From contig JBBTTG010000019.1 of assembly GCA_038064355.1 (NCBI GenBank), positions 1-53,936 on the forward strand: DNA of 53,936 bases, in the 5' to 3' direction. Made by a program: the position numbers and the translations under genes. The first letter of the stretch is position 1; each line of letters starts with the position of its first letter. This stretch comes from Patescibacteria group bacterium. Lineage in GTDB: Bacteria; Patescibacteriota; Patescibacteriia; GWA2-47-26. The notes beneath the pieces were generated by a model that saw only the letters and a list, made by a program, of their open reading frames with translations, was not told where the DNA came from and did not search any database. This document shows positions 1 to 19,229 of the stretch, in pieces.

Positions 1-505
1 TGAAACAGTCATCCGTTATCTTCGATTTTTGACATGTCGCGCGCATGCGATTAAAGCAATCCACTTTAAAAAGGCAGGCCAGCACGGTTTCTTTGCGCAG
101 ATGGTAGAAGCCGACTGATTTTTGTCTTTCCCCTGTCTTCGGTTGAAGAAGATATACCGTATCCCTCACAGGTTTTACGCAGAATGCGGATAAATCCTTC
201 GGATCCATGGCGAGATGACTTGTCAAGGCGGCATTGGTATATCCAAATGGGGGATCCACATTCTCGGGTTTGGGACACGAAGCGCCCGTCATAACGCTTG
301 AATTACCAGCGGAGGTGGCGTAGTAGCTATCGCCGTCGCTCTCGATCCGGATTCGGTTCCCCACAGCATCCATGTATGTTTTCGACACCTGTTCTTCACA
401 GGCGTCGCGCGCGAGACGAAGGAAGGCGGGGTCTTTTTGAAAATTTTGCGCGGCGCAATTGGCCAAAAGAACAATGGTCGCTCCCGCGAGCAGTAAGTGT
501 TTCAC
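1..505 (-). CDS. Secreted Cys-rich lipoprotein, N-terminal 168 codons (gene runs off the left window edge)
   Basis: Absent from the ORF track because it is truncated by the window edge. The reverse frame from GTG at 505 stays open to position 2. GGAG lies 8 nt upstream. The N-terminus MKHLLLAGATIVLLANC is a signal peptide plus lipobox. Confidence 0.6.
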   Translation of the reverse strand, partial: MKHLLLAGATIVLLANCAAQNFQKDPAFLRLARDACEEQVSKTYMDAVGNRIRIESDGDSYYATSAGNSSVMTGASCPKPENVDPPFGYTNAALTSHLAMDPKDLSAFCVKPVRDTVYLLQPKTGERQKSVGFYHLRKETVLACLFKVDCFNRMRATCQKSKITDDCF

Positions 506-634
506 TTGTCTGATCTCCTCTGAGGGTGATAAGGGAAAAGGACTGTTTGTTTATTACATCATAAAAGATGTCCTGTCAAACACTTCATACCTCGCTGTGT
601 CATGCCGGCGGGTGAGAGTTTGGCTGTATAATGT

Positions 635-742
635 GAGACTGTAGAAAATACCTCTTTCTCTGTCATTGCGAGGAGTAAACGACGAGATTGCCGCGCCCAC
701 TCGATGAACTCGGGGCTCGCAATGACGAATTTTTACAGTCTC
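635..742. repeat. Composite palindromic element: family-D termini enclosing a family-C hairpin (661-727)
   Basis: Termini are GAGACTGTAGAAAA ... TTTTTACAGTCTC. The interior is TGTCATTGCGAGG ... CTCGCAATGAC. Confidence 0.8.
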
Positions 743-788
743 AATGTAATATTTTTGAATTCAAACGTTATTATTAAAGATATGTGAT

Positions 789-1364
789 ATGCCCAGTGAA
801 AAATGGCTTATAAGCCGAGCAAAAACAGATAAAGAAGCCTTTTTGGAGCTTTATAGGGGATATTATCCCAAGCTTTTTGCTTTTCTTTTGGTGCGAACAA
901 GAAATAAAGAGCTGACCGAGGATATAGTTCAGGAAACCTTCACAAAAGCCATTGTCGCCCTAAAGAATTTCCAGTATAAAGGATGCTCTTTTGGTGCTTG
1001 GCTTTTTAGAATCGCCCAGAATGAGCTTATCAGCCAGTGGCGAAAAGAAAGAAAAGTTGTTCAACGGTCGCCTGAGGAGATGGAAGCTGTCGGGCCGGGT
1101 GGATTTTCAGTTGAGGAGCAGTTTATAAGCCAAGAAGCATCGCTTGAAACAAAAGAGCGCGTGAAAAATTTATCCAAAGCCTTGGATGAATTGAGCAAAG
1201 AAGAAAGCCAGTTGGTTATTATGAAATATATTTCAGACCTTTCTTATAAAGACATCGCGGTTTTTCTCAAAAAACGCCCGGCCACTTTGGCCGTTGCGCT
1301 TCACCGAGCATTGAGAAAATTAAAAGATATTTTAGAAAAATATGACAGCAAAACAAATGTTTAA
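789..1364 (+). CDS. RNA polymerase sigma factor, sigma-70/ECF family
   Basis: 191 aa. Region 2 resembles LTEDIVQETFTKA. Region 4 HTH is LSYKDIAVFLKKRPATLAVALHRALRKLK. Confidence 0.85.
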   Translation: MPSEKWLISRAKTDKEAFLELYRGYYPKLFAFLLVRTRNKELTEDIVQETFTKAIVALKNFQYKGCSFGAWLFRIAQNELISQWRKERKVVQRSPEEMEAVGPGGFSVEEQFISQEASLETKERVKNLSKALDELSKEESQLVIMKYISDLSYKDIAVFLKKRPATLAVALHRALRKLKDILEKYDSKTNV

Positions 1365-2490
1365 AATTACACCCGAAGAAGAAAAAATCAAAAGCGGACT
1401 GAAGGATGTTGGCAAGTCATTAAGGGATAAATCGCGCGCCGCGGATGACCGCTTGGGCGAGATGCTTGAAAATGTTTATGAAACAAGCGAAGGCAAAGGG
1501 GAAATTGGCTATGTTTTAAGTTTTTTTAAAAAGCCGTTGTTTTTAGTTCCTGCCGGATTGGTAGTTATATTCTTTGCAGTTATCATTTACAACGTTTACA
1601 AAGAATTTACTTACAACCCGTCTTATAATTATCCTTCTTACGGTGGTAGCTGGGAAGGAGGCGGAGATAGGTATTTTGGAGGGGCATCCGAAATGTCTGT
1701 AGGCGCAAGCTATCAACCCCCAACTTTTAAGCAAAGATTTTTGAGTCGGCTCGGACAAAATGAAGCAAGTCCGTATGAAATAGCCAAACGAGGGCCGATT
1801 CTTGAAAAAGACTTGAATGTTGAAATAATGACCGATAAAAAAGATGAAGCGAGCGGAATGATTCAAAACGCTTTTACTTCGCTTGGCGGTTTTATCAGCA
1901 GTATAAATAACGATACGGCCAGCCAGAGACGCGGCAGAATTTATGCCTATGGTAAAATCCCGGCCAATAACATAGAAGCATTCCGCATTCTGATAAAAGA
2001 TTTTGCCGAAGAAGAAAAATATTATCGCGAGGGGATACAAGCCAAAAGCCGGACAGCCGATATGATTGAAATTGAGAAAAAAATTAAAGAAGTTGAGGAT
2101 AGCGTCAAGTATTTAGAAGATGCCATTAAAAAAGAGGCAGATCCAGTGAAAAAAGCCGGGCTTGAAAAGAAATTAGCTGACAATCAGGCTTATCTTGGCG
2201 AACGAGAAGAGACGAAAAAAGGAATAGAAGAGAGGGTGGAATTTGTTGATGTGAAGCTGACCGCAATTGTCTTTCCAAAATTTTGGCAAGCCTCCTCAAT
2301 TGATGATTTCAAATCAATTTATGTGGGATTTGAAGAGCCGACTTTGCTTGATAAATTTAAAATAAATGCCACTCGTGTGCTGGTTATTTTCCTGCAAATT
2401 TTCAGCTACACTTTCTGGCTGATACCGATCATTATCTTGGTTTGGTGGAGGAAAAGAAAAGAAAAAGGACTACTTGAAGAGTTAGAATAA
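1342..2490 (+). CDS. Two-TM membrane protein, DUF4349-like; possible anti-sigma partner
   Basis: Overlaps the end of the sigma gene (alternative ATG at 1357). It has a cytoplasmic N-terminus, a TM segment LFLVPAGLVVIFFAVIIY, a coiled-coil ectodomain and a C-terminal TM segment. The family call is from memory of the architecture only. Confidence 0.5.
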   Translation: MTAKQMFKITPEEEKIKSGLKDVGKSLRDKSRAADDRLGEMLENVYETSEGKGEIGYVLSFFKKPLFLVPAGLVVIFFAVIIYNVYKEFTYNPSYNYPSYGGSWEGGGDRYFGGASEMSVGASYQPPTFKQRFLSRLGQNEASPYEIAKRGPILEKDLNVEIMTDKKDEASGMIQNAFTSLGGFISSINNDTASQRRGRIYAYGKIPANNIEAFRILIKDFAEEEKYYREGIQAKSRTADMIEIEKKIKEVEDSVKYLEDAIKKEADPVKKAGLEKKLADNQAYLGEREETKKGIEERVEFVDVKLTAIVFPKFWQASSIDDFKSIYVGFEEPTLLDKFKINATRVLVIFLQIFSYTFWLIPIIILVWWRKRKEKGLLEELE

Positions 2491-2633
2491 TAGGATGCCA
2501 TCAAAAAATATTTTTAAAAACCATTATACATACAGAAAGAGTCCCCGCAAAAGAGATTCTTATCTGCGATACCCAGGAGAGAGCCGCGTGGTTGCACACA
2601 CAGTTCTAGTGTCTAACGAGAAATAACTAAAGT

Positions 2634-2754
2634 GAGACTGTAGAAAAACGCGATCTGCTTCGTTGAAATCTGCGGTACTCACTCGCCGCACCTCAAGTGC
2701 ACCTCGATTCGTTCCTCGATTCCGTCTCGCATCTCATCATTTTTTTACAGTCTC
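2634..2754. repeat. Family-D MITE-like element (121 bp), diverged copy
   Basis: Termini are GAGACTGTAGAAAAACGCGATCTGC ... CGCATCTCATCATTTTTTTACAGTCTC. It aligns with the copies at 8340-8460 and 19068-19188. Confidence 0.85.
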
Positions 2755-2788
2755 AAAATACTGTGAATTACGAACACCCCTTCTCTTG

Positions 2789-2835
2789 TGTCATCCCCGC
2801 GAAAGCGGGGATCGACAGGGGGGGGCGGGGAATGA
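2789..2835. repeat. Family-F palindromic element (GTCATCCCCGCGAAAGCGGGGAT type)
   Basis: TGTCATCCCCGCGAAAGCGGGGATCGAC...GCGGGGAATGA. Related copies lie at 26901-27000, 34281-34350, 40207-40267 and 42944-43004. Confidence 0.7.
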
Positions 2836-2929
2836 TAAACAGAGAGTTTCGTAATTCAAAGAAAATAGCATTTTCTGTGCAAGTTCAAGTCTTGTACTAT
2901 CAAGTCTTTGTGTGTTCGTGACTTGCCCA

Positions 2930-3033
2930 CATCGCCTTCCCCCTTTGAAAAAGGGGGATTGAGGGGGATTTTCTCCAACCTGTTGCATAAATCCCTCGGC
3001 CTTCGGCCACTCCCTTTTTCAAAGGGAGAGAAA
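2930..3033. repeat. Family-G element, inverted relative to the copy at 39788-39925
   Basis: CCCCCTTTGAAAAAGGGGGATTGAGGGGGATTTTCTCC...CCCTCGGCCTTCGGCCACTCCCTTTTTCAAAGGGAGAG is the reverse complement of the 39.8 kb copy. Confidence 0.8.
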
Positions 3034-5737: not shown

Positions 5738-5799
5738 ACTCAATAGTGAGAATACTGTAGCATGGGGGGTTGAAAATGGCAAGTGTACGCGGGGATTAA

Positions 5800-5834
5800 G
5801 GTATAGGGAGTAGGCGGTAGCGTGTAGACAGTAA
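5800..5834. repeat. Heptanucleotide NNNGTAG tract (5 units), intergenic
   Basis: GGTATAG GGAGTAG GCGGTAG CGTGTAG ACAGTAA, located between the terminator and rpmE. Confidence 0.8.
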
Positions 5835-5868
5835 AAAAACGGACCCGAGGGGAAACCCTAGGGTCCGT
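5833..5868 (-). terminator. Rho-independent terminator of the lipoprotein gene
   Basis: On the minus strand: ACGGACCC-TAGGGTTTCCCC-TCGGGTCCGT followed by TTTTTTT. Confidence 0.75.
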
Positions 5869-5896
5869 GGTGCCGCGATGCGCGGACAAGGAGCGA

Positions 5897-6653
5897 TTAG
5901 TCGACGCGGACGCAGTTGCCGACGTAGGCGGGGCTGGGATCCGTGTCTTGCGAGGTGTAGATGCCCTCGACTTCTTTGCCTCCGACGCATTTGTAGACAT
6001 GAAGTTCGCCATCGAGCCTGTTGCCGCTCGCCCAGACGTTGCATACCCATTTGCCCTGGCCGCGGTCGATCTGGAAACTATCACTCCCCGGCACGATGAT
6101 GTTTATGAAATTGTTGAACCCGGGAATCTCTTTCCGGAAAGAGCCGTCCAAGCTCCTGAGCGTCAAGGATTCCATAGCGCCACCGGGAGTCTTGTAGATC
6201 ACGCGCATCTTGCTCGAGTCGCAAGATAGTGTCGGCGGCGCCGGATTGTCATCGTCATCGTCATCGTCGTTTGATGGCGGGGGATTCTGTGTTGGCGGAG
6301 GATAGTAGTGGTTCGTGACGTGGCCACTTTTTTCCTCCACCTCGCCGCCAGAGCCGTCATCCTCTTCCTCGTCCGGAGGATTGCAGATGAATTGGACGAC
6401 TTCGCCGGTGGCGTTGTTGATGGCGTAGTCGCGCCATTGGTTTCGGTTGCCGCAGCCCTTGCGCGATGCCGGTGTAACAAGCTGTTGCACCCAGGGAATC
6501 GCTTGGGGTGCATGTCCATTGCCCGTCGGGGCGCATCGTCAAGAGGGTGATTTGGGTGGGCGTGCCACCGTCGCCCACGTCTTCCTCGAGACCACAGGCG
6601 GGGATGATGGCGCCCATGATGAGTACCATCAATGCAAGAGCGTTCGTTTTCAT
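5897..6653 (-). pseudogene. Lipoprotein gene split over two frames (+1 shift near 6440-6480), or an assembly indel
   Basis: AGGAGGGAG SD plus ATG at 6653. The N-terminus MKTNALALMVLIMGAIIPAC has a lipobox. That frame degenerates into an Arg-rich tail, while the +1 frame continues protein-like for 197 aa (poly-Asp/Pro linker, C-terminal Cys-containing domain). Confidence 0.5.
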
Positions 6654-6800
6654 TCTTTTCTCCCTCCTTGGGAGTTTGGGGGTTTGTGTTGAACAGAGCG
6701 AAAAACTGACACCATTAAAGCATTATCCTTGACTTTTGTCAATGTTTCATCTATCTTCCCAAGAGATCTTCGCACTTCGCGGAGATAAGGAGGAAAGACC

Positions 6801-8015
6801 TTGAAAACTGAACTTGGATGTCTTCCGACGAAGTATGGGGTGATTGAATTCCGTACACGGCGTATTTCCGGATCCAATGCACGGGTACTCATGGAGCGAT
6901 GCGTTATTCCCGCCGGCGCCATGGACCGAAAAGGAACCATCTCCCAAAAGGATAAATCCATTCCCGCCGGCACGGTGTTGGTGCCGCATTGGGATGACTA
7001 TGACGCCCCGGGCGCGGAAAAGCTTTTTCATCTTTTTCCCGGCGGTATCTTTGAAGCCCTGCGTTCAATGATGCACGCGCTTTTCGGATATGGGGCGCGC
7101 GGCAAGCATGGCGAGCTTCGGCAGATTGATGCCCTTGTCAAGCGGATTGACGCGGCGGTGGATACGCTCCTGCAACGCCATGAACTCATGCCATTTGCCG
7201 TGGAGAAGGCACAGCAAGAGCTTGCGTCTATCGCAACCGATCTTGATACTGTTCGCAACAGGCGGAAGGTGAATGCGAGGGATGCGCTCGTAAAATCTTC
7301 AGCGCTTACGATTTCGTATCGCAATGCACCCCGCCGCAACGTGCCCGCCACCATTCGACGCATTGACGGCGCCAAGAATCGATTGGGGGGCCGCAGTCGG
7401 GAAATCCATCATATTGTCCCTCACGTGGCGTTTTTCGAACAAGCGCTCGCTTCAGAGATTGGCAGGATGATCCGCGGATTGGAAAACGCGGTGGTCACAC
7501 TCTTAGTGGAATCTTCGCGTCTTGAGCGGCGCAAGACGCCCTATAGCGAGGGGGAGCGCAGGATTTTTTTTCGCCGATATCGTGATGTCGGCGCGGTGCT
7601 TGAGAATATTCGGTGTGTGCCGTTTCTCCGTGCCGCGCACCTTGCGCGCGCGGATATGGGTGAGGCGGCCAAGTTTCTCGATGCCGGAAATTACGGCAAG
7701 GCGGCGTTGTCTCTCAAGCGCGCGGCGCGCGGACTCAAATGCAAACTCGCGCAGGTTTATTTTGAGCGTACCATTGTCTTCCCGATGTCCTTGCGCATTG
7801 GACTGGGTGTGTTTTCGGCGGCGGATGCGGAAAGGTTTGCAAAGAAGCTCACAAAGATACGGATATCCGCGGATGCTCGTCTCGACGATGAGGGGTTTCG
7901 CGCCCCCGTGAAGATGAGATTCATCTCCGCCATCGGTGAAGCGATCATTTCCCTGGAAGCGGGGGAATATCGTGCCGCCAAAGATAAAGTGAAGCGCGCT
8001 TCTCGCGCGCTCTAA
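6801..8015 (+). CDS. Hypothetical protein (404 aa, Arg/Ala-rich, helical)
   Basis: TTG start 7 nt after a perfect AAGGAGG. It is a long open frame in a GC-rich island. An internal repeat is AGNYGKAALSLKRAARGL / AGEYRAAKDKVKRASRAL. No family was recognised. Confidence 0.6.
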   Translation: MKTELGCLPTKYGVIEFRTRRISGSNARVLMERCVIPAGAMDRKGTISQKDKSIPAGTVLVPHWDDYDAPGAEKLFHLFPGGIFEALRSMMHALFGYGARGKHGELRQIDALVKRIDAAVDTLLQRHELMPFAVEKAQQELASIATDLDTVRNRRKVNARDALVKSSALTISYRNAPRRNVPATIRRIDGAKNRLGGRSREIHHIVPHVAFFEQALASEIGRMIRGLENAVVTLLVESSRLERRKTPYSEGERRIFFRRYRDVGAVLENIRCVPFLRAAHLARADMGEAAKFLDAGNYGKAALSLKRAARGLKCKLAQVYFERTIVFPMSLRIGLGVFSAADAERFAKKLTKIRISADARLDDEGFRAPVKMRFISAIGEAIISLEAGEYRAAKDKVKRASRAL

Positions 8016-8339
8016 TCCCCGTCATGTTTTCGCGTTTCTCGCTCCGCTCTTGACAATTTTTCGTCCTCGTGATGATATATTGGTAAGAGTGTTCGTTCTG
8101 TCTGCATTGCATCTGGTTGGCGGCCTCTGAATATTCCCCATCCCCGCGACATCCCTCCCCTCCCCGCGTGGCGTGGTTCAGGAAGTTCATTGGTCGTCCA
8201 ACCGTTTTCTTGGCCGTATGGTCATAAGGTTTGTTTTTTCAACGAAAGCGTCGTAACCCCCCCCGCAAACGACATTCGCTGGAGAGACACTCACTGTGAC
8301 TATACTGGCCAACTTTTGTTTATAATCGAGTTGTAATTT

Positions 8340-8460
8340 GAGACCGTAGAAAAACGCGATCTGCTTTGTTGAAACCTGCGGTATTCGCTCACCGTACCTT
8401 TCAGTACGGCTCGCTCACTCCTCGGTTTCGCCTCGCATCTCATCGTTTTTCTACAGTCTC
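8340..8460. repeat. Family-D MITE-like element (121 bp)
   Basis: Identical by eye to 19068-19188. It has roughly 20 bp terminal inverted repeats AATTTGAGACCGTAGAAAAA / TTTTTCTACAGTCTCAA and a central hairpin CCGTAC-CTTTCA-GTACGG. Confidence 0.9.
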
Positions 8461-8941
8461 AATTTCGCGGTCATGATTTCGCAAAGTCCCTGTAGCCGGT
8501 TTTTTCGCTACCAGGATTTGCCCAAAATGTGGTGGACTGATACAACGATTTGACTTTCTCCGCCAGGTGTGGTTTACTGAGCTATAAGCTTCGTTCTGTT
8601 CGACAATCGATGAGGTTGGTGACCTGGCGGTTTCCGCAAAATCCCTCTCTCCTTTCTGTTCTACTCTGGCTCATGCTCTGGTTCATACATGGCAATTGCG
8701 GATCCGTCGGTCACCAACCTTTGCTCTTTTCGCTGGGCTGAAGCCTTGGAAAGAAAGATGAACCGAAAATTGATCCCCCCCTCGACATGCGGTTCGGTGA
8801 ATTCTTTCCCCAAGGTTTCGGCCTTTTTTATTTTTTGTCCAGAATACCCCATGGCTTGCCATGGGGATGAATGGAAACAAAAAATAAAACCCCGCCTTGG
8901 CGGGGTCATATTACCGCACCGCAAGCAGTGTGATAATTGAT

Positions 8942-8976
8942 TTTTCAAAAAAATCCCCCCGATCGGAATCGGGGGG
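8942..8976 (-). terminator. Rho-independent terminator downstream of the 9004-9549 gene
   Basis: On the minus strand: CCCCCCGAT-TCCG-ATCGGGGGG followed by ATTTTTTTG. Confidence 0.75.
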
Positions 8977-9003
8977 CTATAAGCCAGCGAAAGTTTTTGA
9001 CGG

Positions 9004-9549
9004 TTACCTGCGCCAGCGGGGCTTTGGGAGATCGCCGCCGAGGTCGCTCCACTGGGCGAAGACGTGAGCGACCGGCACCTCCAGGACGACATGGTCGATA
9101 CGGCTCGGCTGGTTGCCATGTTGGTAGCCCAAGGCGAGGTGGCCTCCCGGAAAGATTTTTTGCTCGAGCGTCGATGGACCTTCGGTCAGGGACATTGCCC
9201 AGCGAGTCGAATAGTTCAGGTGGCAACCGATGAGCAGGTTTGGCAGATTCGGCTGCGCCCACTCGGGCCAATTGCGGAGCTTTATATGCTTGATCCATGC
9301 GCCTTCCGCGTGGAAGTCGCTGAGTGTAACCTCGATTTCCCCGACTATGCTCGGTTGATTCGCCAAGCGGCCGTGTAGGATGATGCGCAGGATCCAGTAG
9401 GGCGTAAGCCATCCGGGCGCGAGATTGGGAGCGATGGAAAATTCATCCACCCGCCCCTCATGCGACAAATGCCGTTCGTCAAATTCGGGTATTTGTTTTC
9501 CTTGGCAGTAGGGGCAGTCTGGATGCGGGTGGGTTTGGGTGTTTCGCAT
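9004..9549 (-). CDS. Hypothetical protein (181 aa)
   Basis: The start was chosen at ATG 9549, with AGGAG 9 nt upstream (the ORF-track start at 9603 has no SD). The N-terminus carries a CPYC motif. No family was recognised. Confidence 0.55.
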   Translation of the reverse strand: MRNTQTHPHPDCPYCQGKQIPEFDERHLSHEGRVDEFSIAPNLAPGWLTPYWILRIILHGRLANQPSIVGEIEVTLSDFHAEGAWIKHIKLRNWPEWAQPNLPNLLIGCHLNYSTRWAMSLTEGPSTLEQKIFPGGHLALGYQHGNQPSRIDHVVLEVPVAHVFAQWSDLGGDLPKPRWRR

Positions 9550-9615
9550 GGCGCGCGTCTCCTGTGTGAAAAGGGCACTCTCACCGTAGCTTAAAAAAGG
9601 CATAAGGTCAAGCCA

Positions 9616-9662
9616 TTGACAAGGGGAGGGAAATTCTATATCATACTGTTCAAGTATGATAT
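9616..9662 (+). promoter_or_regulatory. suf operon promoter with an overlapping palindromic operator
   Basis: TTGACA (9616-9621), a 17 nt spacer, then TATCAT (9639-9644). A perfect 10 bp inverted repeat ATATCATACT-gttca-AGTATGATAT spans 9638-9662 and covers the -10 element. Confidence 0.65.
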
Positions 9663-9671
9663 CTTCGTTTT

Positions 9672-10061
9672 ATGGCCTATCTCAATAAAGAAATTGACTA
9701 CGCGCTTCAGTTGATGTCCGCACTGCGCGGACATGATGAAGGAGTGCCGCTCTCACTGAAAGCTTTTGCCAAAGATGCCGGTATTTCTTTTCTTTTTTTG
9801 CAAAGGATCGCAAGCAAGCTCAAAGAGGCGGGTCTTGTTCGGGCGCGATTGGGCGCCTCGGGTGGGTATTTTCTGTCATACTCTCCCGAAGGGGTGAGCT
9901 TGGCCAATGTCATTGCTGCCATCGATGGGAGTTTCGGGGTGGTGCCGTGCGTGGCGGGTTTTTGTCCGCAGGCGAAAATGTGTGGACACAAAAATTCTTT
10001 TCTTTCGCTCGATCAAGAGCTCAAAGTTTTTTTTGCCAGCAAGAAACTGTCACAGTTATGA
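9672..10061 (+). CDS. Rrf2-family transcriptional regulator (IscR/SufR-like)
   Basis: The N-terminal wHTH is YALQLMSALRG...LSLKAFAKDAGISFLFLQRIASKLKEAGLVRARLGASGGY, with a C-terminal Cys cluster. Its stop overlaps the sufB start (ATGA). Confidence 0.85.
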   Translation: MAYLNKEIDYALQLMSALRGHDEGVPLSLKAFAKDAGISFLFLQRIASKLKEAGLVRARLGASGGYFLSYSPEGVSLANVIAAIDGSFGVVPCVAGFCPQAKMCGHKNSFLSLDQELKVFFASKKLSQL

Positions 10062-11467
10062 AAGCGGAAATACCGATGCAGGATATAACCCGACGGGAAC
10101 TCTATGATCAGGCCGACGCTACTCGGTCTCGCTTTGTTTCGCCCCCCGGCTTGAACGAGGGGACCGTCCGTGAGATTTCACGGCAAAAAAATGAGCCTGC
10201 GTGGATGCTCGAGAAGCGCTTGTCCGCGTTCGCGCTCTATCAAAAGGCGTCCCTGCCAACCTGGGGTCCGGATTTGAGCGGACTGGACTTAAGTAAGATT
10301 GTTTACTTCGCGCGTCCGGAGGCTGATGAATCCAAGAGTTGGGAAGACGTGCCCGAGGAGATCAAAAAAACCTTTGACCGATTGGGGATTCCCGAAGCCG
10401 AGAAAAAGATACTGGGCGGCGTGGGCGCGCAATATGATTCGGATGTGGTGTATCACAATATCCGGGAGGACATTGCCAAGCAGGGCGTGATTTTTGAAAA
10501 TATGGACACGGCGCTCCGTGATCACGAGGAGCTCGTGCGGAAATATTTTATGACGAGTTGCGTGCCCATAAACGATCACAAGTTCGCCATGCTCCACGCC
10601 GCGGTCTGGAGCGGCGGCACTTTTATCTCTGTACCGCGGGGCGTCAAAGTTTCTATGCCCCTACAGGCCTATTTTCGGATGAACGCGAAAGCCGGCGGGC
10701 AGTTTGAACACACGCTGATTATCGTGGACAAGGGCGCGGAGCTTCATTATATTGAAGGATGCAGCGCACCGCGGTTTGACGTGAGCGCGTTGCATGCGGG
10801 GTGCGTGGAGATTTTTGTGCACGAGGGCGCGCGGACGCGTTACACGAGTATAGAAAATTGGAGCAAGAATACCTACAACCTCAACACCAAGCGCGCGCTC
10901 GTGGACAAAGATGGTACGATTGAATGGGTGAACGGAAATTTCGGCAGCGGGGTGACCATGCTCTATCCATGCAGTATCCTGCGCGGAGAAGGCGCGCGAG
11001 CCGACAGTCTCGGCATTGCATTTGCCGGTCCTGGTCAGCATCAGGATACCGGACTCAAGGTGATTCACGCGGCGCCGCGCACCACTTCGGTAATGAAATC
11101 AAAAAGCATCAGCCGCGGCGGCGGAGTTTCCACCTATCGCGGCTATGTGCGTATCGCCAAAAATGCCGCGCAGTCCAAAAACAGCGTGGTCTGCGACGCG
11201 CTGTTGGTGGGTGATACCTCGGTTTCAAATACTCATCCGTTTATGAAGATTGAGCGCGCGGACGCCACGGTGGCCCATGAAGCGACCGTTGGAAAAATTG
11301 GCGATGAAGAGATTTTTTATCTCATGAGTCGCGGTCTTACCGAAGAACAAGCCTTGCGGATGGTGGTGAGCGGTTTTGTGGAACCCATCGTGAAAAAATT
11401 GCCGCTTGAGTATGCGGTCGAGATGAATCGCCTCATCGAAATGGAGATGGAAGGAGCTGTCGGATAA
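10058..11467 (+). CDS. sufB: Fe-S cluster assembly protein SufB
   Basis: Typical SufB sequence (GAELHYIEGCSAP, TYNLNTKRA, HEATVGKI). The start was trimmed to ATG 10058. Confidence 0.95.
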   Translation: MKAEIPMQDITRRELYDQADATRSRFVSPPGLNEGTVREISRQKNEPAWMLEKRLSAFALYQKASLPTWGPDLSGLDLSKIVYFARPEADESKSWEDVPEEIKKTFDRLGIPEAEKKILGGVGAQYDSDVVYHNIREDIAKQGVIFENMDTALRDHEELVRKYFMTSCVPINDHKFAMLHAAVWSGGTFISVPRGVKVSMPLQAYFRMNAKAGGQFEHTLIIVDKGAELHYIEGCSAPRFDVSALHAGCVEIFVHEGARTRYTSIENWSKNTYNLNTKRALVDKDGTIEWVNGNFGSGVTMLYPCSILRGEGARADSLGIAFAGPGQHQDTGLKVIHAAPRTTSVMKSKSISRGGGVSTYRGYVRIAKNAAQSKNSVVCDALLVGDTSVSNTHPFMKIERADATVAHEATVGKIGDEEIFYLMSRGLTEEQALRMVVSGFVEPIVKKLPLEYAVEMNRLIEMEMEGAVG

Positions 11468-11482
11468 AGATGCAAGACTAAA

Positions 11483-12616
11483 ATGGAAAATCAATTATTG
11501 GAAAAACAGAAAGAGAGGGTGCGGGAAGTATTCGCTTCCTTGCCTCTGCCGAATTTCAAGCACGGACTCAATATTCACTCCGCGCCGGATTTTGTTTTTC
11601 CGTTTGAGCGATCTCTCACGCCGGAACGCGCGCCGTGGAAGCTCATGAAACAAAGCGGCTCGGTGGGGATTGAAGATCTCGCACTCGCAGTACGACGGTC
11701 GGAAGTGGCGCGCTTCATAGAGGATGGGAAATTTTTGGAAGCAAAAGACAAGATTGACGCCTGGAATGTGCTTTCGGCTTCTGCCGGACACTATGTGCGC
11801 TTGGAGGGGGAGTGTATGGTTTCCTTCAATGTGGATTGTTCGAAAGAGCGCCATGATCAAGTCATTTTTCATGCTTTGCCGGGGAGTCGCGCGCAGGTGG
11901 TGATTCGGTATCGCGGTAAGCCGCGACGGAGTGATGGTACGTTTCAGACAGAGCGCATCCTGGCCGCCTGTGAAGAGGGGGGCACACTTTCCATAGTCTC
12001 GCTTCACGAGGGTGGTCAGCCGATTGTTTTTCAAAATCGGCAGGCGAAGGTCGCGCGTGATGGTAAGATGGAGTGGAATGACTTCATGGGTGGTGCAGAG
12101 TTTTTTTCTTTGCGCGTGAATACGGAGCTTATTGGTGAGGGCGCGCGCGTCGGGCAGACGCTCGGATATGCGGGCGCGGGAAAAGCGATTGCGGATATTG
12201 ACGCGAGGATTCTTCATCGCGCGCCGCGCACGGATTCCGACATGCGCATGCGGCTTGCCGCGAGCGGACAATCGAGAATCGTCTGCCAGGGAACGGTGGT
12301 CATTGACCCCCGGGCTCGCGCGGCAAACGGCTTTCAGGATATCAAGGGTATAATTTTTGATACCGCCGAGATTGATCCGGTGCCGCATCTTGAAATTGGC
12401 AACGCCGATGTGAAGTGCGGGCATGCCGTGACCGTAAGCCCTTTTGATGAAGAGACGTTGTTTTATCTCTCTTCACGGGGTATCGGCGAAGCGGATGCGA
12501 GGAAGACTCTCTTGAAAAGTTTCTACCGTTCGCTTGTGGGTAAGAATATCGGGGCCGCGACGGTCAAAATATGTGCGCGTTTTATAAAAAAAGCCGTCGC
12601 TTCAATGGCATCGTAA
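11483..12616 (+). CDS. sufD: Fe-S cluster assembly protein SufD
   Basis: SufB/D beta-helix family (HRAPRTDSDM, GHAVTVSPFDEETLFYLSSRGI). Its position follows sufB. Confidence 0.85.
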   Translation: MENQLLEKQKERVREVFASLPLPNFKHGLNIHSAPDFVFPFERSLTPERAPWKLMKQSGSVGIEDLALAVRRSEVARFIEDGKFLEAKDKIDAWNVLSASAGHYVRLEGECMVSFNVDCSKERHDQVIFHALPGSRAQVVIRYRGKPRRSDGTFQTERILAACEEGGTLSIVSLHEGGQPIVFQNRQAKVARDGKMEWNDFMGGAEFFSLRVNTELIGEGARVGQTLGYAGAGKAIADIDARILHRAPRTDSDMRMRLAASGQSRIVCQGTVVIDPRARAANGFQDIKGIIFDTAEIDPVPHLEIGNADVKCGHAVTVSPFDEETLFYLSSRGIGEADARKTLLKSFYRSLVGKNIGAATVKICARFIKKAVASMAS

Positions 12617-12621
12617 ATCCT

Positions 12622-13854
12622 ATGAATACTGAACAGATTAAAAAAGATTTTTCCATATTTTCTCACGCGGCTCGGTCCGGGAAGCCTTTGGTGTATCTTG
12701 ATAACGCGGCTACCTCGCAGACGCCTGATGAGGTGTTGGAGGCGATGAACGCCTATTATCAAAAATACAGATCGAATATCCACCGCGGGGTGTATGCCAT
12801 CGCCGAGCGGGCGACCTCCGCTTATGAGGGCGCGCGTTTAGCGGTTGCGGAATTTATCGGTGCCGGCGATCCGGGGGAGATTATCTTCACCCGCGGCACC
12901 ACCGAGGGATTGAATATTTTGGCAAGCCGGTTGACCCTTGGGCTTTCCGCGGGCGACGAAGTGGCGGTGAGCGAAATGGAACATCACGCAAACCTCGTTC
13001 CATGGATGCAGGCCGTTAAAGCGCGAGGATTGACGCTGCGCTTTTTACCCGTGCGAAAAGACGGACGGTTGGACATTGAAGCCGCGCGCGCGATTATCGG
13101 CCCGCGCGTCAAAATCGTCTCGCTGTGCCACGCGAGCAATGCCCTGGGTCTTGTTAATCCCGTCCATGAGATCGCGGATATGGCGCACGCGCATGGCGCC
13201 GTCGTGGTGGTGGACGGAGCACAAAGCGTTCCGCACCTGCCGGTGAATGTCGAGGAGCTTGGCGCGGATTTTTTCGCTTTTTCCGGACACAAGATGTTTG
13301 GGCCAACGGGTATCGGCGTCCTGTGGGGGAAAAAAGCATTGCTGGAAAAGATGGAACCGTTTTTATACGGCGGCGACATGATTCAGGAAGTGACTCTTGA
13401 TGGCGCGACATGGACCGACGTGCCGTGGAAATTTGAAGGCGGTACCCCACCCATTGCCGAAGCGATCGGACTTGCCGCGGCCGTACGGTACCTCCGGCGT
13501 CTCGGGATGGAAAATGTGGTTCGTCATGAGCGCGAGCTGACTCGATACGCGCTGGAACGGATGTCCGCCCTCGGGGGAGTGATGCTCTATCCTGCGGGAG
13601 ACGCCCCCGACGCGCCGGATCGCATAGGAGTTATCGCGTTCAATATAGAAAAAGTGCATCCGCATGATGCGGCCTCCATTTTGGATCGCCATGGTATCGC
13701 GGTGCGCGCCGGTCATCACTGCGCCATGCCGCTTTTGCGCAAACTGGGGATTAATTTTTCTCTGCGGGCGAGTTTTTCGGCATATAACACGCGCGAGGAT
13801 GTTGACCTGCTTATTGCGGCGATCGCAGACGCCCAAAAAATTTTTCACGTGTAA
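12622..13854 (+). CDS. sufS: Cysteine desulfurase SufS (class V aminotransferase)
   Basis: YLDNAATSQ, the PLP-lysine motif FSGHKMFGPTGIG, and RAGHHCA. The start was trimmed to MNTEQIKK. Confidence 0.93.
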   Translation: MNTEQIKKDFSIFSHAARSGKPLVYLDNAATSQTPDEVLEAMNAYYQKYRSNIHRGVYAIAERATSAYEGARLAVAEFIGAGDPGEIIFTRGTTEGLNILASRLTLGLSAGDEVAVSEMEHHANLVPWMQAVKARGLTLRFLPVRKDGRLDIEAARAIIGPRVKIVSLCHASNALGLVNPVHEIADMAHAHGAVVVVDGAQSVPHLPVNVEELGADFFAFSGHKMFGPTGIGVLWGKKALLEKMEPFLYGGDMIQEVTLDGATWTDVPWKFEGGTPPIAEAIGLAAAVRYLRRLGMENVVRHERELTRYALERMSALGGVMLYPAGDAPDAPDRIGVIAFNIEKVHPHDAASILDRHGIAVRAGHHCAMPLLRKLGINFSLRASFSAYNTREDVDLLIAAIADAQKIFHV

Positions 13855-13856
13855 GT

Positions 13857-14243
13857 ATGGAAGATTTTCAGGGCGACGAGCTCTATCGGGAGAATATATT
13901 GGATCATTACCGACATCCGCATAACACCGGGGTGATGGAGCAGTGCACTCACCGCGCGCGCGAGGTCAATCCTTTATGCGGCGACGAGATCGAGATTTTT
14001 TTGCGGTTTGACGAAGTGGGGAAAGCCGCGAATGTTTCTTTTGTCGGACAGGGATGCGCCATCAGTCAGGCGGTGGTGTCTATGCTCACTGATTGGGTGA
14101 AAGGGAAAAGTCGTGAGGAGCTCGCAAGGGCGGATGAGACATATGTGCGGCAATGGCTCGGAGCGCCGGTGAGTGTCTCGCGGGAGAAGTGCGCATTTCT
14201 GGGTTTACGCGCTCTGCGGAGGGCCATTGATATCAATAATTGA
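13857..14243 (+). CDS. sufU: SufU/IscU-like Fe-S scaffold or sulfur acceptor
   Basis: LYRENILDHYRHPHN, NPLCGDEI, GQGCAISQA. Confidence 0.88.
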   Translation: MEDFQGDELYRENILDHYRHPHNTGVMEQCTHRAREVNPLCGDEIEIFLRFDEVGKAANVSFVGQGCAISQAVVSMLTDWVKGKSREELARADETYVRQWLGAPVSVSREKCAFLGLRALRRAIDINN

Positions 14244-14253
14244 ATCATACACT

Positions 14254-14976
14254 ATGCACACTTTAGAAATCAAAAATTTACACGTGGCCGTGGATGGAAA
14301 AGAAATCGTGAAAGGTGTAAATTTTTCCGTGCGCTCCGGGCAGGTGCACGCGCTCATGGGTCCAAACGGCTCGGGCAAGAGTACGCTTGCCAACGCTTTG
14401 CTCGGCCATCCGCGCTACACTATTACGGACGGGAAAATTTTCATGGACGAAAAAGATATAACGGCAGAGAAGACTCATCTTCGAGCGAAGGCGGGGGTAT
14501 TCCTTTCCATGCAGTATCCGCCGTCGGTGGCCGGACTCAATGTCGGGCAATTTTTACGCACGGCCTATCAAGAGCTTACAGGGTTAAAAGTTTCCGTGCA
14601 GGAGTTCCATAAAAAAATAAAGGCGGACATAGCACAGCTGGGCATGGACGCATCGTTGTTAAGACGCGGCTTAAGTGAAGGGTTTTCGGGTGGCGAGAAA
14701 AAGCGCATGGAGATTCTGCAGATGTTGGTACTTGAACCAAAGATTGCGATTCTTGACGAAACGGATTCAGGGCTCGATATCGATGCCCTCAAAGCCGTGG
14801 CAAAAGGCATCAGCGTCATGCGCGAGAAAGGCCTTGGGGTTTTACTGATTACGCACTACACGCGATTTCTTGAATATCTCATGCCGGATTTTGTTCATGT
14901 CATGAGCGATGGAAAGATTATCCGTGAAGGCGGACAGGAGGTGGCTCGCGAGATTGAAGAGCAGGGGTATGATTAA
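14254..14976 (+). CDS. sufC: Fe-S assembly ATPase SufC
   Basis: Walker A GPNGSGKST, signature FSGGEKKR, Walker B ILDETDSGLD. The start was trimmed to MHTLEIKNL. Confidence 0.95.
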   Translation: MHTLEIKNLHVAVDGKEIVKGVNFSVRSGQVHALMGPNGSGKSTLANALLGHPRYTITDGKIFMDEKDITAEKTHLRAKAGVFLSMQYPPSVAGLNVGQFLRTAYQELTGLKVSVQEFHKKIKADIAQLGMDASLLRRGLSEGFSGGEKKRMEILQMLVLEPKIAILDETDSGLDIDALKAVAKGISVMREKGLGVLLITHYTRFLEYLMPDFVHVMSDGKIIREGGQEVAREIEEQGYD

Positions 14977-14999
14977 AAAAAATTGAAGAAGGTTACAAT

Positions 15000-15302
15000 A
15001 TGTTACAAGAGAAAAAGCTCACAAAAGAAAATATAGAGGTTACGCTTCAGACGATTCTTGATCCGGAGGTTGAGGTCGACATCTGGACTATGGGTTTGAT
15101 TTATCGAGTGGGTATAAGGGGTGATACAGTGGACGTCGATATGACCTATACAACGCCTCTGTGTCCTTTTGGGCCGGAGATTGTTGGGCAGGTGAAGGCG
15201 AAGATTCTCGAGCTCGGAGCCAAAGAAGTAAGAGTGAACGTGGTGTTTGATCCGCCCTGGAAGCCGCCTGCAGAGCTCAAAGAAATACTGGGGATGGAAT
15301 AA
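15000..15302 (+). CDS. DUF59/SufT-like Fe-S assembly factor
   Basis: 100 aa with ILDPEVEVDIWTMGLIY...TTPLCPFG. Confidence 0.8.
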   Translation: MLQEKKLTKENIEVTLQTILDPEVEVDIWTMGLIYRVGIRGDTVDVDMTYTTPLCPFGPEIVGQVKAKILELGAKEVRVNVVFDPPWKPPAELKEILGME

Positions 15303-15332
15303 AAAAAGTCCCGACTAGCGTGAGCTGTCGGG
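15302..15332 (-). terminator. Hairpin terminator between convergent genes (T-run on the minus strand)
   Basis: On the minus strand: CCCGAC-AGCTCACGCTA-GTCGGG followed by ACTTTTTTT. The hairpin overlaps the stop codon of the 15315-15566 gene. Confidence 0.55.
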
Positions 15333-15566
15333 GGTGGGGAAAACCGGCTCGCGGATCTCGAGGATGTAACCGCCTTCGGCGAGGATTTCCATGAGACGTT
15401 CTTTTTTGACCGCGTGGTGGATTGGGTTGCCTTGCGCGCGCCACTGCACGAGCTCGCCGGTAAAGCCAAGAATTTTGATTCTTGGGCGCTGGGTGGTGCA
15501 GGGTTTGTCGCTTGCGGGCGCGCGCCAAATCTGTCCTTCGGCAAGTTGAATGCTTTTTGCATCCAT
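15315..15566 (-). CDS. Hypothetical small protein (83 aa)
   Basis: ATG at 15566 with GGAGG 10 nt upstream. No family was recognised. Confidence 0.5.
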   Translation of the reverse strand: MDAKSIQLAEGQIWRAPASDKPCTTQRPRIKILGFTGELVQWRAQGNPIHHAVKKERLMEILAEGGYILEIREPVFPTPDSSR

Positions 15567-15663
15567 CAAGATGTTCCTCCGTGGAAAGAGCATTGGTTTC
15601 TGAAAACACCATAGTATAAAAATAATTTTTTGTCAATACGCATACGCGAAACTTATTCATATT

Positions 15664-15948
15664 ATGAACGACAAAGAAAAGAAATATCACGTGCGCGTAT
15701 TGAGCGATACCTGTATCGGCGCAGGACCTTGTACGGTGATTGCGTCAAAAGTATTTGAGCTGACCGAAGAGGGGAAAGCGGTGATCTTAAAAAAGGATGG
15801 CACAAAAACAAGCGATAGCACCTCGTACGCGGAACTCTCGGAGGAGGATGCATCGATAATCCTTGAAGCCGCGAAATCATGCCCGGTATTTGCGGTGGTC
15901 ATAGAAGATGGCGAAGGGCGCCAGATTTGGCCGGAGGTAAGGCCTTGA
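15664..15948 (+). CDS. Small ferredoxin (single-cluster type)
   Basis: VRVLSDTCIGAGPCTVIA...AAKSCPVFAV. Confidence 0.75.
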   Translation: MNDKEKKYHVRVLSDTCIGAGPCTVIASKVFELTEEGKAVILKKDGTKTSDSTSYAELSEEDASIILEAAKSCPVFAVVIEDGEGRQIWPEVRP

Positions 15949-15973
15949 CAAAAAAATCATAATCATCTATAGT
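15945..15973 (+). promoter_or_regulatory. Consensus-like sigma-70 promoter for the 16028-17389 unit
   Basis: TTGACA (15945-15950), a 17 nt spacer, then TATAGT (15968-15973). Confidence 0.6.
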
Positions 15974-16027
15974 AGCCGCGCACATTGAAAGAGACAGAAA
16001 AACTACAACCTGCAGGGAGGGATAGCC

Positions 16028-16927
16028 ATGATTCCAGAGATTCTTCAGCGATCCCTGCTTGCCAAAGTGGGGTCAAACGTTACGAGGACATTGAGGAGCT
16101 TTCTTTTGAGTCCCGATGCCCGGCTGGTTGCCGCGGTGGGAGAAAAGACCCACTGGATCGACATCAACCCGTTTACCGGCATTCAGTTGTGCGAGGGTGT
16201 GGCGATCGTGGATCTCTTGCCACAGGTGCAGAAATCGCTGTGGCTGTTTTCGGAAACGTGCGGATTGCTCGTGACGCACGAACCGCATCCGGAGTTTCCG
16301 ACTGCAAGCGGCGTGTGCCGCGTGGTCATTCATTGGCGTGAGAAGCCCAGCTTCGTACGTGGTGGCGGATATCTGAAAGACGATCCGCTTCCCGCCTGTT
16401 GCAATGCCCTGGGTCAGCGCAACCGTGTCGGCGAGTGGATTGCTTCGATCCTGCTTGAAGGAGAGGATCTGCCGTTCACCGCTCTTGCCGGATTCGATGA
16501 GTTTACCGTTGAGTGTCCGGAGGAATTGCGAGAGGTTCCGCGAGATCTCGCGGAGTCCGTGGTGCGAGATTGGAATACCTTCCTTTCTCCGACTTCGGAT
16601 GGGCGACAGGCTTCTTGCAGGGTTTTCGTGCTTGAGCCGCAGGCCAGTCTGCCGCTGACGTTGCGGTTTCAGATTCTGCCGCCACCCATGGTGGTTGCGC
16701 CGATTGAGCCGCCTGCCGTGAACGCGCCGCCGCCTTTGGCGCCCGTCGCTCCGATCAAGCCGAGGCGTACGCCGGCGCCGTACTGTAATGGCTATTCACT
16801 TACCGATAGGCTTGCTCGTCTCATGCCGCCCAAGGTGAGCGTTACCGAGAGGACGGATGAGCCGCCGATCTATCCGCGGTATCACCCGAAATGGTTGTTT
16901 CGCAGGAGGTCAGGAGGTGATGAATAG
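16028..16927 (+). CDS. Hypothetical protein (299 aa) with a Pro-rich C-terminal region
   Basis: GGGAGGG SD 7 nt upstream of the ATG. The gene is GC-rich. No family was recognised. Confidence 0.6.
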   Translation: MIPEILQRSLLAKVGSNVTRTLRSFLLSPDARLVAAVGEKTHWIDINPFTGIQLCEGVAIVDLLPQVQKSLWLFSETCGLLVTHEPHPEFPTASGVCRVVIHWREKPSFVRGGGYLKDDPLPACCNALGQRNRVGEWIASILLEGEDLPFTALAGFDEFTVECPEELREVPRDLAESVVRDWNTFLSPTSDGRQASCRVFVLEPQASLPLTLRFQILPPPMVVAPIEPPAVNAPPPLAPVAPIKPRRTPAPYCNGYSLTDRLARLMPPKVSVTERTDEPPIYPRYHPKWLFRRRSGGDE

Positions 16928-17041
16928 GAGAATCGGTGGAGAGATTTCCAATTTCCCAAAGAATCCGAAGCTTCCAAGTGATTTTCAAGTGAGAAGCGGA
17001 GGTTTCCCATACCGTGCGCAAGCACACCAGGAGATACATCA

Positions 17042-17389
17042 ATGACGAATGCACAAGGTTACGCAGAACTGTTCGAGGCAGTGGAGGCGCGGAATCTCGA
17101 GGCGGTGCAGAAACGCACGATCGCGGCCGCGATCGTGCAGATGATCAATGAGCCGGAATTTATGGACCTTGCCGCTATGGGGCATTGGTGTTTCGCTTTC
17201 CAGGTTCCCGAGGTCATCGGCCTCACCGACGAGACGGTCGACGAGTTGATCAAGGCGCGGAAAGAGAAGGCCAACCAGTACGAGAACGTGCGCCTGGCGA
17301 CCAAGGCGGAGATCACCCAGGCGGAGGCGTGTGAGATTCCGGTCATCAAGACCGGACACAACGGGAAGTGGCTCATCTTCACGTATTAG
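17042..17389 (+). CDS. Hypothetical protein (115 aa)
   Basis: AGGAG SD upstream, followed by a strong terminator. No family was recognised. Confidence 0.55.
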   Translation: MTNAQGYAELFEAVEARNLEAVQKRTIAAAIVQMINEPEFMDLAAMGHWCFAFQVPEVIGLTDETVDELIKARKEKANQYENVRLATKAEITQAEACEIPVIKTGHNGKWLIFTY

Positions 17390-17411
17390 GTGCAACGGAG
17401 ACACCTGCACA

Positions 17412-17447
17412 AGCGGTTCGACCCTTTGGGTTGAGCCGCTCTTTTTT
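17412..17447 (+). terminator. Rho-independent terminator
   Basis: A 13 bp stem AGCGGTTCGACCC-TTT-GGGTTGAGCCGCT (two G-U pairs) followed by CTTTTTTG. Confidence 0.85.
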
Positions 17448-17482
17448 GTGAAAGAATGAAATTTTTGGGATAATAATATTCT

Positions 17483-18112
17483 ATGGACACGCGCACCCGA
17501 GCCGAGGAGGCATTGAAGCGCCTCAAAAAGGAATATCCCGAGCGCGGGCCGTTTGTGGAGTGGAAAAATTCGCTCGAGCTTGTTGTCGGCACCATGCTTT
17601 CGGCGCAGTGCACGGACGTGCGGGTGAATATGGTGACGAAGACTCTTTTTAAAAAATACAAAACAGCGAAGGATTACGCCCGCGCGGATCTGTGTACGCT
17701 GGAGAAGGAAATTTACAGCACGGGATTTTTTAAAAGCAAAGCGAAGTATTTGAAAGGGATAGGGGAGCGGATCGTAAAAGATTTCGGCGGCCGCGTGCCG
17801 GCAACGCTTGAGGATCTCTTGACTCTGCCGGGACTGTCGCACAAGAGCGCGCATTTGGTCATGGCCAAAGCGTTTGGAAAATTTACCGGTATTGCCGTTG
17901 ATACACATGTCTATCGCGTGGCGCCGCGGCTCGGGCTGACTCAATCAAAAGATCGCGACAAGGTGGCCGGCGATCTTGAGAAGCTCTATCCGCCGAAAGA
18001 GTATTTAAATGTCAACGAATACTGTATCATGCACGGCCGCGCGATCTGTAAACCGCGGCCTTTGTGCGGGGAGTGCGTCTTGCAGGATATTTGTCCATCG
18101 GCGGATATTTGA
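17483..18112 (+). CDS. nth: Endonuclease III
   Basis: HhH-GPD fold (LLTLPGLSHKSAHLVM, VDTHVYRV) and a 4Fe-4S loop CKPRPLCGECVLQDIC. Confidence 0.93.
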   Translation: MDTRTRAEEALKRLKKEYPERGPFVEWKNSLELVVGTMLSAQCTDVRVNMVTKTLFKKYKTAKDYARADLCTLEKEIYSTGFFKSKAKYLKGIGERIVKDFGGRVPATLEDLLTLPGLSHKSAHLVMAKAFGKFTGIAVDTHVYRVAPRLGLTQSKDRDKVAGDLEKLYPPKEYLNVNEYCIMHGRAICKPRPLCGECVLQDICPSADI

Positions 18113-18137
18113 CATAATCCCGGGCTTTTTGTATACT
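18109..18137 (+). promoter_or_regulatory. Promoter of rpsB-tsf
   Basis: TTGACA (18109-18114), a 17 nt spacer, then TATACT (18132-18137). Confidence 0.6.
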
Positions 18138-18295
18138 CTTTGCATTGTAAAGGACTTCCACTTTATACTTTTAATTATTTGCCGCCATGGGCGGCACCCC
18201 GCCAAAGGCGGTGGAACTTCACCCACATACTCTCAAGTATTTCCTGTCTTGCCCCCGGCAAGATTGAGAGGAGAGGCAAAGGAAATCGAATCTCT
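18138..18295 (+). promoter_or_regulatory. Long structured 5' leader of rpsB (candidate autoregulatory leader)
   Basis: About 150 nt between the promoter and the ATG. It holds three GC hairpins: TGCCGCC-ATG-GGCGGCA, CCGCC-AAA-GGCGG and TCTTGCC-CCCG-GCAAGA. Confidence 0.3.
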
Positions 18296-19057: not shown

Positions 19058-19067
19058 TATGTAATTT

Positions 19068-19188: not shown

Positions 19189-19229
19189 AAATTGTTCCCC
19201 GCGAAATTTTTTTTGCAACATTTTTATAT

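Follow-up and report, generated by a model that had tools for sequence, protein, structure and literature searches.

Shine-Dalgarno-led genes as a minority class beside U(-1)AUG starts in a Patescibacteria genome

Between positions 5833 and 9603 of contig C19 of a Patescibacteria group bacterium (JBBTTG010000019.1, 53,936 nt, the whole of which is called the window here), a few uncharacterised genes carry strong Shine-Dalgarno (SD) sequences, whereas core genes of the same contig carry none. A preliminary description of this DNA took the genes for an island richer in guanine and cytosine (GC), and offered two readings of it: cargo acquired laterally from an SD-using donor, or a separately regulated class of translation. 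The question raised by this locus is why a handful of genes should be started in a different manner from the rest. Our analysis suggests that the region probably shows, on a small scale, a division of translation starts that runs through the whole genome, in which a class of SD-led genes is maintained beside a large majority of genes that have a T directly before the start codon, T(-1), and no SD. The second of the two readings fits best, with SD and T(-1) nearly exclusive of each other and the SD kept in three gene families, those of a 404-aa protein of the region, of rpsU and of HU.

The genome (795 kb in 50 contigs, 51.6% GC, 97.6% complete) is of the candidate phyla radiation (CPR) type. 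With a simple dicodon gene finder of our own, 672 genes were predicted on 87.6% of the DNA, and starts were refined for the 671 that had enough upstream sequence. The refinement step is biased toward T(-1); the unrefined gene set gave the same picture. At the ATG starts of the longest open reading frames (ORFs), T(-1) was found in 371 out of 491 cases (76%) versus 30% of internal ATGs, and after refinement it was present in 529/671 genes (79%), with T or C at this position in 620. In the window, 41 of the 50 genes have it. The frequency of T(-1) peaks in operon-internal genes (86%), TAATG/TGATG overlaps and zero spacing between genes are absent, and a 1-nt spacer is always T. For these reasons T(-1) is a signal of translation and not of transcription start, and an account based on leaderless mRNAs was rejected. 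The upstream context is A-rich, with A at -13, and in T(-1) genes SD motifs occur at or below background frequency. EF-Tu, EF-G, GroEL, RpoB/C, AtpD and the entire ribosomal-protein cluster are all of this TATG type, without SD.

An obvious candidate mechanism for the TATG starts would be the pairing of U(-1) of the mRNA with A37 of the initiator tRNA in a quadruplet codon-anticodon interaction (Hollerer & Jeschek 2023, PMC10018350, with the older studies it cites). As in that system, the U stands directly 5' of AUG, and the initiator tRNA has the usual anticodon loop CUCAUAA, with A37 present. However, the modulation is modest in E. coli, while in this genome U(-1) is near-obligatory throughout the SD-less genes and relaxed where an SD is present.

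The canonical anti-SD has been kept. The 3' end of the 16S ribosomal RNA (rRNA), encoded on contig C21, reads ...GGATCACCTCCTTTCT, and the tail, CACCTCCTTTCT, is canonical although most genes lack an SD. Genes were called SD-led when at least 5 nt of AAGGAGGTGA were found at an aligned spacing of 3-12, and windows displaced by 15-90 nt in either direction served as control. Over all genes SD is barely enriched, with a GGAG/GAGG peak at -13 to -9 that is just about twice the background. Nevertheless, the SD minority proved to be real, and the highly expressed housekeeping genes examined throughout the genome proved to be TATG-type without SD. There were 47 SD-led genes versus 11-31 at shifted positions (about 19, an excess of about 28), and in the top GC quintile 23 of 131 genes versus 2-8. 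Long motifs such as AAGGAGGTGA were found at 5-9 nt spacing. An SD is present in 29/142 genes lacking T(-1) (20%) and in only 18/529 having it (3%; odds ratio 7.3, p=4e-10). Two classes of start signal are real in this genome, and they are near-exclusive.

The SD-led genes differ from the others in further respects. Their median GC content is higher (0.546 vs 0.522, p=7e-6; at third codon positions 0.602 vs 0.581), they make up 17% of the genes in the top GC quintile versus 3-6% in the other quintiles, and their codon usage is slightly atypical. They are mildly clustered (16 pairs within 3 genes versus 8.3 expected, p=0.011), while their non-SD neighbours are normal in GC and in the rate of T(-1). 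A Pfam match was obtained for 11/31 proteins of the SD class versus 15/20 length-matched TATG controls (p=0.009). The conserved members are bS21 (rpsU), HU, the major type IV pilin and giant surface proteins; RecA, KsgA and a PurF-like protein belong to the class only at weaker or chance-level confidence. No enrichment of signal peptides was found in the SD class. The idea that SD marks highly expressed genes was rejected, as the genes of EF-Tu, GroEL, RpoBC and the ribosomal proteins lack it. The GC-richest stretches of the genome (57-61%) lie at 17-29 kb of contig C35, 24-31 kb of C3 and 4-7 kb of C48; several SD-led orphans lie in those of C35 and C3, which may be islands of this kind on a larger scale, and on C48 two SD-led genes are located farther along the contig, at 10.0 and 15.3 kb.

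The eight SD sites named in the preliminary description are all present where it placed them, and it was right about the core genes as well, since no other gene of the window (suf, eno, pgk, gpmI, mreB, rpsB, rplJ/L, nth and the rest) has a duplex energy below -7.0 kcal/mol. The SD-led genes and the signals that belong to them are as follows.

5897-6653, minus strand: SD-led gene of a lipoprotein, with a signal peptide, an IIPAC lipobox and a frameshift near 6480-6530 that splits it.
6660-6668, minus strand: SD AGGAGGGAG, 6 nt before ATG 6653, -1 base A; the homologue on metagenomic contig L031 has GGGAGGA 6 nt before its ATG.
6729-6757, plus strand: promoter-like TTGACT-17-TATCTT of the 404-aa gene, kept in a 68%-identical homologue.
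6787-6793, plus strand: SD AAGGAGG, 7 nt before TTG 6801, duplex -11.1 kcal/mol, kept in L031 and 10 more distant homologues.
6801-8015, plus strand: gene of the 404-aa protein, of an uncharacterised family, GC 56%, with an N-terminal beta domain and a long helical bundle.
9004-9603, minus strand: orphan ORF of low coding score, GC 58%, with an ambiguous start, TATG 9603 (199 aa) or ATG 9549 (181 aa).
9559-9563, minus strand: SD AGGAG of ATG 9549, which is the start in the public protein record.
15315-15566, minus strand: SD-led orphan of 83 aa, GGAGG, -1 base G, GC 58%.
16028-16927, plus strand: SD-led orphan of 299 aa, GGGAGGG, -1 base C, GC 58%; the sole other copy found is 99% identical.
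17042-17389, plus strand: orphan of 115 aa with a weaker SD, AGGAG, -7.4 kcal/mol, -1 base A, GC 58%.
34852-39786, plus strand: giant surface protein of 1644 aa, with both AAGGAGG and T(-1).
2-505, minus strand: lipoprotein-like ORF (MKHLLLAGATIVLLANC) that continues beyond the window edge; its start, GTG 505, has GAGGAG 9 nt upstream.

Support for pairing of an SD with the 16S tail comes from rpsU, which, like HU and rpmE, was sampled in 30 genomes of the class, the rpsU sample coming from many families. An extended SD, AGAAAG-N-GAGGTG(A), precedes rpsU at -10 kcal/mol or lower in 26/30 genomes, with a median of -17.3. Apart from one bulged base it is complementary to the 16S tail; in our alignment A2 (L001-L030) the bulge is a single variable nucleotide between the half-sites AGAAAG and GAGGTG. 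The rpsU SD of genome G004 (L004) is set apart from the ATG by a palindromic insert of about 30 nt. Among 15 relatives whose 16S tails were read, 14 have an intact tail or a compensated variant, and the read-out of G004 is unclear. The variant belongs to family f14, where the tail is changed to ...CCAUCUCCUUU (CAUCUCC) in G133 and G018, the two tails read, and where the SD of rpsU is GGAGAU in G133, G018 and G085, the last being known from its rpsU SD only. By its sequence the change in the rpsU SD is compensatory to that in the 16S tail, in this one lineage. Such covariation in a single lineage argues that the rpsU SD pairs with the tail. In the same family, with the variant tail ACCAUCUCCUUU in G133 and G018, HU is TATG-type without SD in G133, G018 and G085.

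The product of rpsU is a bS21 homologue that scores 20.8 bits in Pfam, below the cut-off, and matches 21 bS21 chains of the PDB at an E-value of about 1e-3. Across the class (L001-L030) it ends in a conserved C-terminal motif, EYLKKIGKLPEE, of the form (R/K)EYLKK(I)GKLPEE, with a basic tail after it. The bS21 of E. coli is not known to have such a motif. The motif could be the part of the protein that contacts the 16S tail. For HU, about 20 of the 30 genomes have GAAAGGAGGTGA 4-7 nt upstream of the start, and those lacking an SD nearly all have T(-1). The control gene rpmE, in the same class, has an SD in 0/30 genomes and T(-1) in 26/30.

In the region itself, the SD can be followed through the 404-aa family. 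The closest homologue, on the metagenomic contig L031, is 68% identical and retains the TTG start with its AAGGAGG and TTGACT-17-TATCTT, as well as the divergent lipoprotein gene, which is SD-led there too; the lipoprotein homologue there adjoins the 404-aa homologue and is unbroken at the point of the frameshift. In the window the lipoprotein gene is read in two frames, 6653-6357 and 6532-5897, and the frameshift could reflect a pseudogene, an assembly error or programmed frameshifting. The 404-aa family is present in 13/150 genomes of the class and is absent from the organism's own family. All seven class homologues examined (22-33% identity) are SD-led, at -7.7 to -14.2 kcal/mol, three of them with a TTG start, and so are three further metagenomic homologues, which brings the homologues checked to 11/11. 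In this family, as in rpsU and HU, SD status is conserved across the class. A profile search recovered 846 metagenomic clusters at 50% identity. The AlphaFold model of the protein (predicted local distance difference test score 87) shows a beta domain and then a long helical bundle. A Foldseek search of the PDB with this model gave no match (best E-value 0.05, template modelling score below 0.3), and the island proteins had no match in Pfam, PADLOC or PHROGs. On L116 (a Logan contig, SRR22387922) a homologue lies in a run of SD-led genes, beside a UvrD-type helicase gene without SD and an SD-led NUDIX gene; the gene context differs among loci and gives no functional clue.

Members of the family are richer in GC than their flanks at 10/12 loci, by up to 17 points. 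In one metagenomic homologue, from an AT-rich genome, the gene has a GC content of 0.588 while the flanking recO/ruvX/map/adk genes have 0.34-0.44 and no SD. This, together with the patchy distribution, raises a serious rival to a maintained SD class: a CPR-internal pool of mobile accessory genes written in its own GC-rich, SD-led style. Ribosomes would then be fully SD-competent, the SD would provide portable expression independent of context, and the SDs of rpsU and HU would be unrelated and involve no special state of the ribosome. Each unit is indeed self-contained, with its own promoter, SD and terminator, and HU alternates between SD and TATG among genomes, so that both modes evidently work for the same protein. 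On the other hand, this explanation does not account for core genes without SD if SD works well, nor for the long bulged SD of rpsU in most genomes sampled. No mobility genes were found beside the units, and the GC content of the family, which ranges from 0.405 to 0.733, partly tracks that of the host, which points to residence rather than constant re-import. We regard the pool as possible, and as clearly less probable than a maintained class of SD-led genes.

Whether the genes were imported from outside is a matter of the wider locus. With prfA as the anchor of synteny (SufB is missing from the organism's own family and could not be used), rpmE-prfA was found to abut rpsB-tsf-gap directly in the same-family genome G002, and in G005, of the same family too, only a 2.2-kb unrelated spacer occupies the site. 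The whole stretch from 5.74 to 18.3 kb (12.5 kb) is therefore lineage-specific, and the borders first drawn for the island, 5833 and 9603, are too narrow. The block and the elements that belong to no gene are listed here.

5738-18295, unstranded: lineage-specific block between rpmE and rpsB, in which annotated TATG-type genes are mixed with SD-led orphans.
8016-9003, unstranded: non-coding DNA of 48.9% GC, in which neither a credible ORF nor an Rfam family was found.
8332-8465, unstranded: repeat of 134 nt resembling a miniature inverted-repeat transposable element (MITE); its terminal inverted repeats are 22 nt long, and the copies at 19060-19193 and 2633-2756 are 99% and 82% identical to it.
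About 8816-8958, unstranded: second dispersed repeat, with copies on C35, C26, C8, C28 and C9; it overlaps the terminators of the 9004-9603 gene.

The TATG-type genes of the block are Rrf2, sufBDSUC, FeS_assembly_P, ferredoxin and nth; an Rrf2-sufBDSUC-DUF59 operon (9672-15302), the ferredoxin gene (15664-15948) and nth (17483-18112) thus share it with the SD-led orphans, which all have 56-58% GC and are interleaved among them. SufB is found in 0/5 relatives of the family and in 65/150 genomes of the class, with a best match of 74% identity in another family, and the Fe-S genes look like a module gained or lost as a unit. Since genes of both types alternate within one block, acquisition with the block does not determine the type of initiation. 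It is the gene family, and not the chromosomal block, that SD status and GC excess follow.

The description of a GC-richer island held in part. The region has 54.6% GC against a mean of 51.9% for genome windows (standard deviation 2.3), which places it at the 94th percentile of equal-sized windows, and its three genes, at 56-58%, lie at the 93rd-98th percentile of genes. However, the non-coding kilobase is well below this, and the neighbouring prmC-prfA-rpmE (53.6%) and suf (53.1%) stretches have little less; the GC excess in the block is limited to single orphan genes. The tetranucleotide distance of the region from the genome is just at the 54th percentile, which is near-native. The supposed kilobase of non-coding DNA was confirmed at 8016-9003, with two repeat copies in it instead of one.

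It is unlikely on these data that the genes were acquired laterally in recent times from an SD-using donor of higher GC content outside the lineage, so that SD and GC excess would be unameliorated traits with no role in the host. Such an origin would agree with the absence of the block from the same locus in same-family genomes, with a patchy 404-aa family that the organism's own family lacks, with the orphan status of the 199-aa and 299-aa genes (homologue searches with both proteins found only themselves and no distinct homologue), and with the higher GC, slightly atypical codons and mild clustering of SD genes. The block is accessory, but several findings speak against a foreign donor: suf, ferredoxin and nth of the same block are TATG-type, the genomic 404-aa homologues that could be located belong to the organism's class and are SD-led even at 22-33% identity, composition is near-native with a good fit of the 404-aa gene to host codon usage, the non-SD neighbours of SD genes are normal, and the vertically inherited rpsU and HU are SD-led. 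No match to integrase, phage or defence genes was obtained among the genes scanned (Pfam, PHROGs and PADLOC, not every block gene having been run through each library), and a tRNA scan of the window found none. MITE-like repeats were the only mobile-type elements found in the region. The block resembles genomic islands of horizontal gene transfer in being lineage-specific, with patchy families, orphans and a slight GC excess; it differs from them in lacking detected mobility genes and a tRNA target, in its near-native tetranucleotide signature, and in that GC excess and SD are traits of single genes set among native-style genes.

That the SD-like motifs are merely chance G-rich strings before GC-rich or mis-called ORFs is highly improbable, because, for all that about 19 of 47 matches are expected by chance and some SD-led ORFs are short and of low coding score (9004-9603 with its ambiguous start among them), the excess over shifted windows in the top GC quintile, the long AAGGAGGTGA-type motifs at 5-9 nt spacing, the retention of SD in orthologues and the covariation of the rpsU SD with the 16S tail all speak against it.

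Some other features of the locus may be added. The 9004-9603 gene has two intrinsic terminators on the minus strand, 8976-8955 and 8907-8888. Relatives of the MITE-like element occur in several other families of the class. In the non-coding kilobase no Rfam match was obtained, either at the gathering threshold on the window or in E-value mode on 7900-9100. Its unique parts are not conserved in the 150 class genomes, only the two repeat copies matching DNA elsewhere, and a conserved non-coding RNA was rejected on this account. The strongest compositional outlier of the window is a low-GC segment at 500-3000 (39-42% versus 52% for the genome), whose genes, an extracytoplasmic function-type sigma factor (789-1364) and a DUF4349 protein (1342-2490), are both TATG-type.

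Returning to the split in translation start, we propose the following scheme. Most genes (about 79%), including every highly expressed housekeeping gene examined, would be started at SD-less U(-1)AUG. For some 30-47 genes (4-7%), most of them without U(-1), the signal would be a classical or extended SD that lies 5-9 nt before the start and matches the intact 16S tail. The members of this class would be a few conserved genes and accessory genes of higher GC content, mostly uncharacterised, to which the divergent lipoprotein/404-aa pair and the orphans at 15.3-17.4 kb belong; their mRNAs would be recruited by SD-anti-SD pairing. The anti-SD may be available only in a sub-population or state of the ribosomes, for example those without bS21, as in Bacteroidia; the SD class would then form a co-regulated set, and rpsU would be autoregulated.

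The nearest parallel known is that of Bacteroidia (Flavobacterium johnsoniae), where the anti-SD is sequestered by bS21/bS18/bS6, and only rpsU keeps an extended SD, by which it is autoregulated (Jha et al. 2021, PMC7797042; McNutt et al. 2023, PMC9976891; further papers on bS21 and SD-blind ribosomes of Bacteroidia are PMC13000453 and PMC13000457). Our organism is alike in keeping the canonical anti-SD while nearly all genes are SD-less, in an A-rich upstream context, and in having an unusually long rpsU SD that matches the 16S tail across the lineage. It is unlike in belonging to another phylum, in that U(-1) is the dominant signal (79%), in that the SD set extends over some 30-47 genes, with HU, pilin, giant surface proteins and many GC-rich orphans among them, and in the one bulged nucleotide typical of its rpsU SD. 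In Bacteroidia the 16S 3' tail lies in a pocket of bS21/bS18/bS6, and SD mRNAs are better translated by ribosomes that lack bS21; in our organism such sequestration would be only a possibility, the one hint being the C-terminal motif that the bS21 of the class has for its own. By analogy, the organism may work in a way similar to the Bacteroidia mechanism; we do not count it as a member because rpsU is far from being the sole SD gene. Some Parcubacteria have no anti-SD (Tsurumaki et al. 2022, PMC9297842). They too belong to the CPR and do not in general initiate by SD-anti-SD pairing, but our organism and 14 of the 15 relatives read have an intact or compensated tail and have kept a minority of SD-led genes. 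In the searchable literature this report was the only one on CPR translation start, and no paper was found that links Patescibacteria with bS21 and SD usage.

A bolder version of the scheme, which we put forward only tentatively, is that this class of Patescibacteria uses the two regimes of ribosome recruitment to switch globally between gene sets. U(-1)AUG would serve for housekeeping mRNAs, independently of the anti-SD, while an SD regulon of bS21, HU, pilin, surface and GC-rich accessory genes would be read only when the 16S tail is exposed, for instance on bS21-free ribosomes, so that ribosome composition would set the balance between core and accessory/surface functions.

Several points weigh against our interpretation. 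All gene starts are predictions of our own gene finder, and with about 19 of the 47 SD calls expected by chance the membership of single genes, e.g. recA, ksgA or ATG 9549, is uncertain. The two-class interpretation is built on sequence evidence. As regards the Bacteroidia-like version, rpsU is essentially the sole SD gene there, which is not so here, and the SD of the abundant HU is hard to fit with a minor sub-population of ribosomes only. Finally, the GC excess of SD genes over very different hosts could also reflect continuing horizontal exchange.

Translation initiation has been little studied in CPR/Patescibacteria. A first consequence is practical: gene callers with a single model of the ribosome-binding site misplace starts, as in the public records, where the 6801-8015 product begins thirty codons late and ATG 9549 is the start given for the 199-aa ORF. 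If an intact anti-SD is used for about 5% of the genes, the bS21 paradigm of Flavobacterium would reach a second, very distant lineage and would extend from one gene to a class of genes. The combination of SD, absence of U(-1) and GC excess would then be a sequence marker for the pool of accessory and surface genes of these symbionts.

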